Assembly: GCF_000026545.1 (NCBI RefSeq)
Contig: NC_011601.1
From: Escherichia coli O127:H6 str. E2348/69
Lineage (GTDB): Bacteria > Pseudomonadota > Gammaproteobacteria > Enterobacterales > Enterobacteriaceae
Length of the DNA: 64,000 nucleotides
Reading direction: 5' to 3' (one strand)
Below are positions 20,345-54,514 of this stretch, in pieces. The notes beneath the pieces were generated by a model. That model had not been told where the DNA came from. It made no database searches and worked only from the letters and a program-made list of their open reading frames with translations. The position numbers and the translations under genes were made by a program. Every line of letters starts with the position of its first letter. Position 1 is the stretch's first letter.

Positions 20345-20370
20345 ATAAATTTCAGGCAACAAAAAACCCA
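20345..20370. repeat. attL core (26-bp direct repeat)
   Basis: Identical 26-mer found again at 54489..54514. Confidence 0.85.
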
Positions 20371-20445
20371 TTTATGTAAACGGGTTAATGAAAACAATAA
20401 CTTAGAGTAAAAACAATAAGTTGGGTTGGTGGTCAGTGGTGGTTA

Positions 20446-21498
20446 TTACGGGGTAATGCCAACCGCTGCCGCCACTTTGTCGCCACTTGGCAGCGTTGCC
20501 AGAGGATTGAAACGGAGCGCCGTTTCCAGATGATCCGGTGCCAGATGTGCGTAACGCATAGTCATTTTTATATCGTGGTGTCCGAGAATTTTTTGTAAAG
20601 CCAGAATGTTTCCACCCGACATCATGAAGTGCGCCGCAAACGTATGGCGCAGAACGTGTGTGGGTTGACCGCGAGGGAGCACGATAGACGTTTTTTCCAT
20701 CACGGATAAAAATTGAAAATAGCAGTCTGTGAAGAAATTGAACCCATCAAGCGCCATGATCTCTTCGTAAAGCTCTTTACTGATAGGGATGCTTCTGTTT
20801 TTCTTCCCCTTCGCTCTTACAAAGGTAATTCGGTATTTGGTCACCTGTGAGCGGGTAAGATTTACGTCTTCTCGCCAGCGTGCGCCTGTGCTTAAGCATA
20901 TCTTAACTACCAGTGCCAGAATTGGGTCCTGACGTTTGCAATCAGCTAGTAATTCAACAATCTGCTCATGGGTAAGCCATGCCATCTCTTTTTCTGCGAT
21001 GGTGAATTTTCGCATGTTCTCCAGTGGGTTCGGATACGACCATTCGCCCAGGCGGGATAGTTCGCTAAAAACACTACTTAGATAGCTTTGCTCCAGGTTA
21101 ATGGTGACCGGGCTTGCTCCTTTCTTCCATTTCTCACTGAAGTAGATCTCACCTGTCAGGCGTTTATCTCGATAGTGGGCAAACATTTTAGAGGTTAGAT
21201 CAGTTGCAAGGGGATTGCCCAGAGCGTCAACCATCAGCAGCAATTTGTCATAGACATGCTGCCCAGCAGTCAGAGATTTACCATGTAGTTTGAACCATAG
21301 CTCAACCACGTCTTTCAGTGTTCGACGATCCACTGATTCACCCAGCCAGGGCTTTGCTTCGGTTTCTTCCATCGTGTGACGCTCAAAAGCCAGTGCTTCG
21401 CCTTTGGTGGCGAATTGTTTACGCACACGACGCCCACTACGTCCGGCGGGGTAACATTCGCAAAGCCATTTTCCTGTGGTGAGTTTTCGTACTGCCAT
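20446..21498 (-). CDS. int: Tyrosine integrase, P2 Int-like
   Basis: 350 aa; similarity to P2 Int by eye; C-terminal catalytic region with RHTFA, HxxR and terminal Tyr motifs (LGHHDIKMTMRYAH). Confidence 0.9.
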   Translation of the reverse strand: MAVRKLTTGKWLCECYPAGRSGRRVRKQFATKGEALAFERHTMEETEAKPWLGESVDRRTLKDVVELWFKLHGKSLTAGQHVYDKLLLMVDALGNPLATDLTSKMFAHYRDKRLTGEIYFSEKWKKGASPVTINLEQSYLSSVFSELSRLGEWSYPNPLENMRKFTIAEKEMAWLTHEQIVELLADCKRQDPILALVVKICLSTGARWREDVNLTRSQVTKYRITFVRAKGKKNRSIPISKELYEEIMALDGFNFFTDCYFQFLSVMEKTSIVLPRGQPTHVLRHTFAAHFMMSGGNILALQKILGHHDIKMTMRYAHLAPDHLETALRFNPLATLPSGDKVAAAVGITP

Positions 21499-21504
21499 AA
21501 TAAA

Positions 21505-21553
21505 GCCCTCATATCAGAGGGCTAAATTTAACTGTATGTTTGACCAGTGGTCA
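21505..21553. promoter_or_regulatory. Hairpin plus perfect 15-bp palindrome between KAP-NTPase gene and int
   Basis: GCCCTC-atatca-GAGGGC hairpin (21505..21522), then TTGACCAgTGGTCAA palindrome (21539..21553) flanked by TGTATG repeats. Confidence 0.35.
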
Positions 21554-21584
21554 ATGTATGGTTTAGTTTATTCAAACAATGCTT

Positions 21585-52538: not shown

Positions 52539-53020
52539 TGATGGTGCTGGGATTGTACGTGTTTATGCTGCGCACCGTGCCGTATCAGGAGCTGCAGTAT
52601 CAACGCAGCTGGCGACATGCGGCAAACAGCCGGGTAAACCGACGTCCGTCCACGCAGTTTCTGGGACCGGACAACGACATGCTGACGCTTTCCGGTGTTC
52701 TTATGCCGGAGATAACAGGCGGCAGGCTGTCGTTGCTGGCACTGGAGCAGATGGCAGAACAGGGGAAAGCATGGCCCCTGATTGAAGGCAGTGGCACGAT
52801 TTATGGCATGTATGTGATTGAGGGACTGAATCAGACTAAAACGGAGTTTTTCCGCGACGGTATGCCGCGCCGGATTGAGTTCACCCTGTCGCTCAAACGG
52901 GTGGATGAATCCCTGTCCGATATATTCGGTGATCTCAGTGCGCAACTGAATAATCTGCAGGACACAGCAACGTCTGCCTTAAGCGATATCAGTAAAACGG
53001 TGGGAGGGCTGCTGTCATGA
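52535..53020 (+). CDS. U: Tail protein U
   Basis: 161 aa; overlaps T stop. Confidence 0.85.
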   Translation: MMMVLGLYVFMLRTVPYQELQYQRSWRHAANSRVNRRPSTQFLGPDNDMLTLSGVLMPEITGGRLSLLALEQMAEQGKAWPLIEGSGTIYGMYVIEGLNQTKTEFFRDGMPRRIEFTLSLKRVDESLSDIFGDLSAQLNNLQDTATSALSDISKTVGGLLS

Positions 53021-54117
53021 ATTTCAGCTCTGAACTGCTTAACAAAGGCAACAAAACTCCCGCATTCAGCATCAGTATTGAGGGCAGGGATATCACCACT
53101 GTGCTGGATAACCGCCTAATGAGTTTGACGCTGACGGACAATCGGGGCTTTGAAGCGGACCAGCTTGATCTGGAGCTGGACGACGCCGACGGAAAAATCG
53201 TGCTGCCGCGCCGTGGTGCGGTTATTACGCTGGCGCTGGGCTGGAAGGGGCAGCAGCTTTTCCCGAAAGGGGCATTCACGGTGGACGAGATTGAACACAC
53301 TGGCGCACCGGACCGCCTGACTATCCGGGCGCGAAGTGCTGATTTTCGTGAAACGCTGAATACCCGCCGTGAAAAGTCGTGGCACAAGACCACCGTCGGG
53401 GAAGTGGTGAAGGAAATAGCTGTGCGGCACAAACTGAAGATGGCATTGGGTAAAGACCTGTCAGATAAACCCGTGGAACATATAGACCAGACCAATGAGA
53501 GTGACGGCAGTTTTCTGATGCGGCTGGCGCGCCAGTACGGTGCTATTGCGTCGGTGAAAAATGGCAATCTGTTATTCATCCGGCAGGGACAGGGTAAAAG
53601 CGCCAGCGGTAAACCACTACCGGTTATCACTATCACACGTAAGGACGGCGACAGTCACCGCTTTACCCTGGCAGATCGCGGAGCCTACACGGGCGTAATT
53701 GCCAGCTGGTTGCATACCCGCGAACCCGCGAAGAATGAAAGCACCACGGTGAAGCGTAAGCGCAGGACTAAGAAGCAGAAGAAAGAGCCGGAAGCGAAGC
53801 AGGGCGATTACCTGGTGGGTACAGATGAAAACGTGCTGGTACTTAATCGCACCTATGCCAACCGGAGCAACGCCGAACGGGCGGCGAAAATGCAGTGGGA
53901 ACGCCTGCAACGCGGCGTTGCGTCATTCTCGCTACAACTGGCAGAAGGTCGGGCAGATCTCTACACGGAAATGCCAGTGAAAGTCAGTGGCTTTAAACAG
54001 CCGATAGATGATGCGGAATGGACCATTACGACTCTGACGCATACCGTCAGCCCCGATAACGGTTTTACAACCAGTCTGGAGCTTGAAGTGAGGATTGATG
54101 ATTTCGAAATGGAATGA
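53017..54117 (+). CDS. D: Tail protein D
   Basis: 366 aa; last tail gene before ogr as in P2. Confidence 0.85.
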   Translation: MNFSSELLNKGNKTPAFSISIEGRDITTVLDNRLMSLTLTDNRGFEADQLDLELDDADGKIVLPRRGAVITLALGWKGQQLFPKGAFTVDEIEHTGAPDRLTIRARSADFRETLNTRREKSWHKTTVGEVVKEIAVRHKLKMALGKDLSDKPVEHIDQTNESDGSFLMRLARQYGAIASVKNGNLLFIRQGQGKSASGKPLPVITITRKDGDSHRFTLADRGAYTGVIASWLHTREPAKNESTTVKRKRRTKKQKKEPEAKQGDYLVGTDENVLVLNRTYANRSNAERAAKMQWERLQRGVASFSLQLAEGRADLYTEMPVKVSGFKQPIDDAEWTITTLTHTVSPDNGFTTSLELEVRIDDFEME

Positions 54118-54204
54118 TTCTTCGCAATGGAGAACTTTTAAGTTTGCAAAATGGAATAATGCGGTATTATTGTGAATTTAGCAAAAATGGGGAGAACTCG
54201 AAAA

Positions 54205-54423
54205 ATGATGATTTGCCCACTGTGTGGAAGTGCCGCCCATACTCGCAGCAGTTTTCAGGTATCTTCATTGACCAAAGAGCGTTACAACCAGTGCCAGAAC
54301 ATTAACTGCAGCCATACTTTTGTTACCCATGAAACTTTTGTTCGTTCGATTGCAACGCCAAAAGAGTCAAATCCGGTTCAGCCGCATCCAATGAAATCAG
54401 GACAGGTGGCGCTCTCTCTTTGA
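54205..54423 (+). CDS. ogr: Late gene activator, Ogr/B zinc-finger family
   Basis: CPLCGSAAH...CQNINCSHTF resembles P2 Ogr; ~72 aa from internal Met. Confidence 0.85.
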   Translation: MMICPLCGSAAHTRSSFQVSSLTKERYNQCQNINCSHTFVTHETFVRSIATPKESNPVQPHPMKSGQVALSL

Positions 54424-54488
54424 CGCTGCCGCCATTTTGTCGCCATCGTTAAAAAACAGTGTTTCTAACATCATGATTTTAAACAGCT

Positions 54489-54514
54489 TAAATTTCAGGC
54501 AACAAAAAACCCAT
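54489..54514. repeat. attR core (26-bp direct repeat)
   Basis: Identical to 20345..20370; overlaps a hairpin (CCCATCAACC ... GGTTGATGGG). Confidence 0.85.

Follow-up and report, generated by a model that had tools for sequence, protein, structure and literature searches.

A P2-like prophage of EPEC strain E2348/69 inserted at the 3′ end of the small RNA gene rybB

Which host sequence serves as the attachment site of the phage-like element that lies between rcdA and ybjL in EPEC strain E2348/69, and in what state has its insertion left the genes around it? We addressed this question in a 64-kb stretch of the chromosome (64,000 nucleotides, referred to here as the window), which contains the element together with both host flanks. 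We are highly confident that a P2-like prophage was put into the 3′ end of the small RNA (sRNA) gene rybB by its own tyrosine integrase, with attR restoring rybB and the bases at attL presumably ending int.

The element is bracketed by the 26-mer TAAATTTCAGGCAACAAAAAACCCAT, which occurs exactly twice in the window, both times on the plus strand (attL core, 20346–20371; attR core, 54489–54514), as a direct repeat at the two ends with 26/26 nt identical. Allowing up to three mismatches yielded no third match in the window, 100 shuffles gave no match (none being expected by chance), and no other repeat longer than about 20 nt brackets the phage genes there. The prophage delimited in this way measures 34,143 bp and runs from int to ogr. 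The first-pass annotation, made from the letters of the window, had taken the two copies for attL and attR, and the exact pair, the contiguous empty site and the attP found in phage records bear this out. It had also placed the right copy 65 nt past the ogr stop codon (TGA, 54421–54423), as we find it, and the left copy directly behind rcdA; the left copy does adjoin the rcdA stop, with a gap of 4 nt (TAGA) rather than 3 and a feature start at 20346 rather than 20345. The host gene rcdA (ybjK, 19805–20341, plus strand, stop TAG at 20339–20341) is left intact, as had been proposed, its stop lying 4 nt before attL, and ybjL (b0847, 54659–56344, minus strand) is intact on the right flank.

The single 26-mer predicted for strains lacking the prophage was looked for in complete E. 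coli genomes. An 852-nt query composed of the left flank, one 26-mer and the right flank is contiguous in 4294 of the 5426 genomes and 100% identical in strains A25 and CP090611. About 1100 complete genomes hold a prophage at the rcdA/ybjL site (some 20% occupancy), with the rcdA–int junction present in 960 and the ogr–rybB junction in 1104. Both junctions, like the rearranged tail block described below, match E2348/69 at 100%. The corresponding attP, in the order ogr, core, int, is contiguous in ESSI2_ev040, which shares 19 of the core bases, and in Klebsiella phage KP12, which shares 25 of 26 (the KP12 record is that of a partial clone, and we assume its attP to be virion-derived). In the record of Klebsiella phage 4LV2017, which occupies the orthologous site of Klebsiella, attL and attR are annotated at this core. 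Escherichia phage vB_EcoM-813R9 was rejected as a source of attP, because its record includes rcdA and is therefore a prophage excerpt showing attL.

The hairpin that the first-pass annotation had drawn at the right end (CCCATCAACC...GGTTGATGGG) is real, with a folding energy of about −24 kcal/mol and a z-score of about −3.3; a simple terminator scan missed it because its loop exceeds 8 nt, and folding revealed it. It is the Rho-independent terminator of rybB, which lies intact on the minus strand at 54501–54582. Rfam family RF00110 matches 54579–54501 with 105.3 bits (gathering score 40, E = 7.7e-21) and is covered in full, from model position 1 to 79 of 79. In K-12, b4417 is annotated as rybB in the corresponding interval, with rcdA and ybjL as its flanks just as in the window. 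The GCC at 54582–54580 was added in line with the published RybB 5′ end. The terminator comprises a 12-bp stem followed by U6, a G-C pair at 54547/54508 extending the pairing of 54537–54546 with 54510–54519. A candidate sigma-E-type promoter of rybB can be read on the minus strand at 54588–54615 (GAACTT, 16 nt, TCTTAA, 5 nt, +1), judged against the sigma-E consensus. Since rybB is absent from the RefSeq pipeline annotation of E2348/69, the raw sequence shows its reader an intergenic hairpin and nothing more. ARAGORN reports neither tRNA nor tmRNA genes in the 64-kb window, and hence no overlap of either with the att core, in agreement with the earlier statement that no tRNA gene is involved; the target is an sRNA gene.

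The 26-mer spans the final 14 nt of rybB and 12 nt downstream. Where within it strand exchange takes place can be read from E. coli ATCC 8739 (Crooks), in which the attL and attR cores differ at three positions, with host bases T8, A11 and T12 at attL and phage bases C8, G11 and C12 at attR. These differences place the exchange within core positions 13–26 (20358–20371, AACAAAAAACCCAT), the duplicate of the last 14 nt of rybB. With the crossover inside these 14 nt, and the same 14 bases present in attP, rybB is complete at attR, the sRNA survives lysogeny and the length of the repeat varies with the host allele, amounting to 26 nt in E2348/69, 14 nt in ATCC 8739 and 19 nt in Klebsiella. We considered a phage footprint as the origin of the 12 additional bases that match in B2-type hosts and rejected it, as Klebsiella has GGCAAC in common with the B2-type allele, which therefore looks ancestral. 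In the mechanism that we propose, Int integrated the phage into the 3′ end of rybB, a minus-strand and putatively sigma-E-dependent gene flanked by rcdA and ybjL. The phage attP repeats the final 14 nt of rybB (the closing part of the terminator stem and the U-run) and, for the E2348/69 allele, the 12 nt downstream. Strand exchange within the 14 nt rebuilds the complete rybB at attR, while at attL the same 14 nt complete a phage hairpin and T-run that would end the int transcript; rcdA and ybjL are untouched.

The hairpin at attL (minus strand, 20365–20386) was picked up by the terminator scan as phage-derived AACCCGTTTACATAAATGGGTT followed by TTTTTTG from the core, and folds at −9 kcal/mol. 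It is kept in the ESSI2_ev040 attP, where an A·C mismatch is changed to A-T, and may act, together with its T-run, as a terminator-like element 3′ of int in attP as well as in attL. The earlier proposal that a hairpin is rebuilt at attL is right in that a hairpin is present there; it is a different, weaker and phage-derived one, however, and would serve int, not rcdA. Several candidate protein-binding sites surround the core. In the P′ arm, two direct AAAACAATAA repeats (20391–20400 and 20410–20419, plus strand) are putative Cox/Apl sites or Int arm sites; the first copy is identical at 9 of 10 nt in ESSI2_ev040, and CAATAAGTT, overlapping the second copy, is invariant. A 22-nt direct repeat, CGCTGCCGCCAnTTTGTCGCCA, occurs on the plus strand in the P′ arm (20464–20485) and in the P arm (54424–54445) as a candidate arm-type Int site, and the conservation of the P′-arm copy may reflect coding, as it lies inside the 3′ end of int. 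A weak IHF-consensus-like site may be present in the P arm (54467–54479, minus strand; relaxed pattern in which the sixth position may be A or T). We propose all of these arm and IHF sites, and likewise a terminator function for the hairpin at attL, from sequence patterns and from conservation in only three attP sequences.

Could the repeat or the hairpin be read otherwise? That the 26-mer is a chance match, a product of homologous recombination or an assembly error instead of an att site draws on its A-rich composition and on nothing else; the absence of matches in 100 shuffles, the single 26-mer that thousands of genomes have where no prophage sits, the contiguous attP of phage records and the same junctions in about 1000 independent genomes make this reading all but negligible. 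The first-pass annotation had the phage target an anonymous intergenic hairpin, the rcdA terminator, to be rebuilt at attL. Such a view accords with the position of the hairpin 30 nt past the rcdA stop, with an equally good plus-strand fold (−23.4 kcal/mol) and with the small hairpin at attL. On the plus strand, however, the right-end hairpin is followed by CUCCACAAAAUGG, which lacks a U-run, whereas UUUUUUGUU comes after it on the minus strand; RybB accounts for all 79 nt of the element and K-12 annotates rybB here, while the attL hairpin reaches only −5.8 kcal/mol on the plus strand (z = −0.36), again lacking a U-run. We consequently replaced the rcdA terminator by rybB as the target and hold the former to be very improbable.

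Polarity does fit a third view, in which the hairpin is mainly the ybjL terminator and the phage targets the ybjL 3′ UTR, given that ybjL is on the minus strand with its stop at 54659 and the hairpin and U-run some 110 nt downstream. This was indeed how the hairpin was read at first, from polarity, and the reading was dropped on identification of RybB by Rfam. Read-through ybjL transcripts could well end at the hairpin too, but between ybjL and the hairpin lie a candidate sigma-E-type promoter and the conserved RybB 5′ seed, which argue for the terminator of an independent sRNA gene, and the literature names rybB as the target. We therefore give this view slightly less credence still than the rcdA terminator. 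Insertion at rybB remains the reading that we adopt: the prophage sits in the 3′ end of an RNA gene, following the same logic as tRNA and tmRNA targeting.

The prophage belongs to the Peduoviridae and is P2-like with a 186-type lysogeny module. An intact tyrosine integrase gene adjoins attL (20446–21498, minus strand; 350 aa, P2/186/HP1 type, Pfam Int_N and Phage_integrase, PF24624 and PF00589), its product being 38% identical to P2 Int, about 54% to 186-like integrases and 99% to that of vB_EcoM-813R9. It is followed on the minus strand by a cargo gene for a KAP-family P-loop NTPase (21585–23102; PADLOC candidate defence protein PDC-S20) and by two CI-type repressor genes (23128–24677), one for a 307-aa protein with two HTH domains (23128–24051) and one for a 186-type CI (24102–24677). 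A Cox/Apl-like excisionase and repressor is encoded on the plus strand at 24797–25018 (phrog_575, E = 1.4e-30). A second cargo locus, the ShosTA defence pair (31510–33049, plus strand), consists of PRTase-like ShosT (31510–32085) and DprA-like ShosA (32075–33049). RefSeq annotates P2-type virion and lysis genes over 33074–54117 (Q, P, O, N, M, L, X, holin, lysozyme, LysB/C, R, S′, ..., FI, FII, E, T, U, D), and the ogr/Delta late activator (54205–54423, plus strand) is the last phage gene. The P2 order (Q P / O N M L X Y K R S V W J I H G ... FI FII E T U D ogr) is kept except in the S-to-H block.

The E2348/69 copy is defective. Comparison of the RefSeq annotation with NCTC11121, in which the S-to-H block has the normal order and an intact invertible arrangement, shows 4.8 kb of tail genes inverted in the window (41731–46515). 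The block is bounded by hybrid crossover sites at 41731–41756 and 46492–46515. Gene S is cut after codon 125, its last 78 nt lying inverted at the far end of the block, and the minus strand carries a shortened form of the tail-fibre gene H (Hc), then I, J, W and V, followed by a 385-aa gene. The variable segment of the tail fibre (about 2 kb) is missing from the window, which of the paired inverted 26-bp crossover sites flanking alternative fibre ends keeps only hybrid half-sites. Searches of Pfam, PADLOC, PHROGs and NCBIfam assigned no function to the 385-aa gene between S and V, to a 111-aa ORF or to a 90-aa ORF. A serine DNA invertase of Cin/Gin/Hin type, annotated as a recombinase, is encoded next to the block (46571–47137, plus strand; phrog_125, E = 1e-100).

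Each novel junction joins half a 26-bp cix-like site to half a weakly matching site in S, at the central dinucleotide. To us this makes it somewhat probable that a Cin/Gin-type invertase, whether the prophage's own or that of a co-resident Mu- or P2-like prophage, used a quasi-site in the tail-completion gene S, and that inversion of S-C′/V/W/J/I/Hc together with loss of the variable segment disabled the prophage, leaving an element that can probably excise and would yield no virions. If true, a phase-variation enzyme would here have locked a prophage and its defence cargo into the host as a natural event. Recombination by Cin, Gin and Hin invertases at quasi-sites was reportedly described by Iida and Hiestand-Nauer in the 1980s. 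The junctions at the central dinucleotide of half-site hybrids are alike in E2348/69, which would differ from the known cases as a natural event that disabled a prophage and needed both inversion and deletion. The phase-variable loci of E2348/69 reported by Goldberg 2014 lie at about 1.89, 2.75 and 2.98 Mb; the tail block was rejected as one of these, as the positions differ and no flipping of the block was detected in that study.

Our search of the literature on ybjK/ybjL prophages and on E2348/69, the strain's genome paper lying outside its scope, returned no account of the E2348/69 prophage. Since rybB is already a published P2-like insertion site, the finding contains nothing new in kind, and its significance lies mainly in correct annotation. 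Among the phage insertion sites of E. coli other than tRNA genes, rybB is one of those used most heavily, and each prophage residing there brings variable defence cargo. In the integration of P2 at cyaR (ryeE), as in that at tRNA and tmRNA genes, a tyrosine integrase acts on an attP in which the 3′ end of a structured RNA gene is repeated, and the gene survives. The E2348/69 prophage obeys the same logic with a different target RNA, an Int only 38% identical to that of P2 and no tRNA.

Among the P2-like sites in Table 2 of Archer et al. 2011 (PMC3032704) there is also 'cyaR RNA', the same paper reporting P2-like Rybb*W, Rybb*B and Rybb*Cr at the 'rybB ncRNA' in E. coli W, B and Crooks. Rybb*Cr (Crooks, ATCC 8739), as read directly, has the same insertion site, phage type and int-side and ogr-side junctions as the E2348/69 copy, from which it differs in an attB allele with only 14 nt of perfect identity; the tail-gene rearrangement is that of the E2348/69 copy. 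The cargo differs: Rybb*B carries retron Ec86, and the E2348/69 copy ShosTA, the KAP NTPase and one more CI-like gene. In the E. coli defence-island survey of Hochhauser et al. 2023 (PMC10121019), hotspot 29 corresponds to Felsduovirus-labelled prophages in rybB, a phage type that carries up to two defence systems at dedicated positions; the E2348/69 copy does likewise, with one position adjoining int and the other separating the replication gene from the portal gene. Among classified phages of the collection, Elveevirus 4LV2017 is its closest relative by DNA (94.8% over 68% of the first 23.6 kb), and the genus label thus differs by source. In Klebsiella, rybB was described as a P2-like insertion site, with island Kpn38RybB, by Hudson et al. 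2014 (PMC4048246). The Int of the Kp48xx prophages is 98.6% identical to that of E2348/69, and 4LV2017 and KP12 have the core in common with it, 4LV2017 occupying the rybB orthologue; no more than 19 nt (CAGGCAACAAAAAACCCAT) are common to attP and the Klebsiella attB, and the Klebsiella cargo differs (retron effector, ATPase). Finally, phi-b0847 of UPEC CFT073 (Wiles et al. 2013, PMC3573123), a P2-like prophage of 33 kb named after the flanking b0847 (ybjL), carries the virulence moron neaT and, unlike the E2348/69 copy, is described as apparently intact.

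The window contains exactly two copies of the 26-nucleotide sequence TAAATTTCAGGCAACAAAAAACCCAT, at 20346–20371 and 54489–54514, each on the plus strand, with no extra copies there at up to 3 mismatches and none in 100 shuffles. These are the direct repeats that the first-pass annotation had placed at the prophage ends, and that observation is confirmed: the right copy lies 65 nt past the ogr stop, as estimated, the left copy lies 4 nt rather than 3 bp past the rcdA stop, and ARAGORN returns neither a tRNA nor a tmRNA for the window, in keeping with the claim that no tRNA gene is involved. 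The accompanying reading of the site holds with respect to the prophage ends, the intact rcdA and the absence of a tRNA, but the rcdA terminator proved to be the wrong target, the actual one being the 3′ end of rybB. An Rfam scan of the region gave a single match, RybB (RF00110), at 54579–54501 on the minus strand, covering model positions 1–79 of 79 and scoring 105.3 bits where the gathering score is 40, and the K-12 MG1655 annotation carries rybB (b4417) at exactly the same place, between rcdA and ybjL. The gene occupies 54501–54582 on the minus strand (886501–886582 in NZ_LT827011), and the 26-mer comprises its last 14 nt (54501–54514) followed by 12 nt of downstream sequence. The hairpin at the right repeat folds with about −24 kcal/mol on either strand, UUUUUUGUU follows it on the minus strand only, and it is the RybB terminator. 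Upstream of the RybB start we read GAACTT, 16 nt and TCTTAA, a candidate sigma-E promoter that fits the consensus. The site looks anonymous because the RefSeq annotation of E2348/69 lacks rybB; at the matching positions of other genomes annotated by pipeline the gene is likewise not listed.

To reconstruct the empty site, the two flanks were fused around a single repeat copy, giving a query of 852 nt. Of 5426 complete E. coli genomes, 4294 carry it as one contiguous stretch, 2 of them with 100% identity, so that the check proposed in the first-pass annotation, a single copy in strains free of the prophage, is passed. The rcdA–int junction was found in 960 genomes and the ogr-side junction in 1104. 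From these counts it follows that in nearly all E. coli the site is either empty or holds such a prophage. Full (100%) matches to both queried junctions and to the rearranged tail-gene block described below are found in E2348/69 assemblies only. The phage side of the reaction is seen in Klebsiella phage KP12, in which the ogr end is joined to the int end across TAAATTTCAGaCAACAAAAAACCCAT in a contiguous attP, and in the record of Klebsiella phage 4LV2017, which has attL and attR annotated at GGCAACAAAAAACCCAT and a right host flank that corresponds, in Klebsiella, to the E. coli sequence. In ESSI2_ev040, a phage further removed (Int 85% identical), CAGGCAACAAAAAACCCAT adjoins int.

To the left of rybB, host attB alleles vary, K-12 carrying TAAgTTTtAGatAACAAAAAACCCAT (L009 1965–1990), and this variation allows the crossover to be located. 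In the ATCC 8739 lysogen, attL reads TAAATTTtAGatAACAAAAAACCCAT and then phage DNA, and attR reads TAAATTTCAGGCAACAAAAAACCCAT and then the rybB body. Core positions 8, 11 and 12 thus hold host bases in attL and phage bases in attR, which places strand exchange to the right of position 12 and within AACAAAAAACCCAT, the rybB 3′ end. Among the three alleles compared for the polymorphic 12 nt downstream of rybB, one is identical to the phage and to the window core (TAAATTTCAGGC), the others being those of K-12 (TAAGTTTTAGAT, L009 1965–1990) and ATCC 8739 (TAAATTTTAGAT, L010 8090–8115). The host allele therefore sets the length of the att repeat, which is 26 nt in the window, 14 nt in ATCC 8739 and 19 nt in Klebsiella.

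The prophage carries a gene for an intact tyrosine integrase of 350 aa, which has Int_N and Phage_integrase domains and shares 38% identity with P2 Int and about 54% with 186-like integrases, and also one for a Cox/Apl-like excisionase. Alignment of three attP sequences, with ESSI2_ev040 as the diverged member, reveals conserved islands separated by diverged sequence: a 22-nt direct repeat, CGCTGCCGCCAnTTTGTCGCCA, with one copy per arm, the core, the hairpin partner and, in the P′ arm, a pair of AAAACAATAA-type repeats. We consider the 22-nt repeats candidate arm-type Int sites, the P′ copy being the weaker candidate since it lies within the int coding sequence, and the short AAAACAATAA-type repeats candidate Cox or Int sites. 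In both attP and attL, the minus strand reads AACCCGTTTACATAAATGGGTT and then TTTTTTG past the end of int, which suggests that the 14 rybB-like nucleotides supply the second half of a terminator-like hairpin of the phage's own. With the prophage integrated, rybB at attR and int at attL each retain a hairpin and T-run. In the lysogen, rcdA leads into the weak hairpin of attL and is convergent with int.

The prophage has a 186-type lysogeny module (CI, Cox/Apl, CII and Fil) and carries cargo. The variable slot adjoining int holds a KAP-family P-loop NTPase (21585–23102, minus strand). This protein best matches PDC-S20, which PADLOC classes as a candidate single-gene defence system (E 5e-78), and resembles PifA and QatA less strongly. 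The normal 186-type CI gene (24102–24677) is followed directly downstream by a second CI-type repressor gene (23128–24051, minus strand), the 307-aa product of which combines two CI helix-turn-helix domains at the N terminus with a single CI C-terminal domain and could confer immunity against a heteroimmune relative. A second cargo slot, between the replication and portal genes, contains a ShosTA-type pair (31510–33049, plus strand) composed of a PRTase-like ShosT of 191 aa and a DprA-like ShosA of 324 aa. RefSeq annotates only the DprA-like gene here and leaves 30982–32074 gene-free despite ORFs of 90 and 191 aa.

The tail genes of the window copy are rearranged. Gene S, flagged as truncated by RefSeq, is cut after codon 125. 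In the intact relative from NCTC11121 (L005 7000–14140), S is followed by a 385-aa gene on the opposite strand, then by V, W, J, I, H and G, and after these by the invertible segment and the invertase. Relative to this order, window positions 41738–46509 are inverted, comprising the first 351 codons of H (Hc), I, J, W, V, the 385-aa gene and the 3′-terminal 78 nt of S, and a tail-fibre variable segment of about 2 kb with assembly genes is missing. The 385-aa gene (45299–46453, plus strand), which in the intact relative lies between S and V and opposite to the tail genes, matches phrog_28299 (unknown function), has no meaningful match in Pfam, PADLOC or NCBIfam, and is 99.9% identical in NCTC11121 and other strains. 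At the left junction (41731–41756, TTATGCTAAACG TA GGTATGTGAGAA), a weakly matching site in S contributes its left half and the H-side crossover site its outer half; at the right junction (46492–46515, CCAAGTAACC TA CGTTTATGAAAA), the remaining half of the S site meets the invertase-proximal half of TTCTCCCAAACC AA CGTTTATGAAAA. Both joins fall at the central dinucleotide (TA) of 26-bp cix-like sites, which points to a serine invertase having acted on a quasi-site in S, by inversion and then deletion. The arrangement is confined to the three E2348/69 assemblies, and a genome-wide inversion survey of E2348/69 reported no flipping at this block. With S cut, the tail block inverted and the segment lost, the window copy should be unable to make tails, while no damage is apparent in int, cox or either att site.

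The repeats are those of a known insertion site used by an ordinary mechanism, and the rybB site has been described previously. Archer et al. 2011 (PMC3032704) gave the “rybB ncRNA” as the P2-like prophage insertion site in E. coli W, B and Crooks, and Hudson et al. 2014 (PMC4048246) gave it for Klebsiella. In Hochhauser et al. 2023 (PMC10121019), hotspot 29 lies in rybB, and its sole occupants are prophages labelled Felsduovirus, each carrying up to two defence systems.
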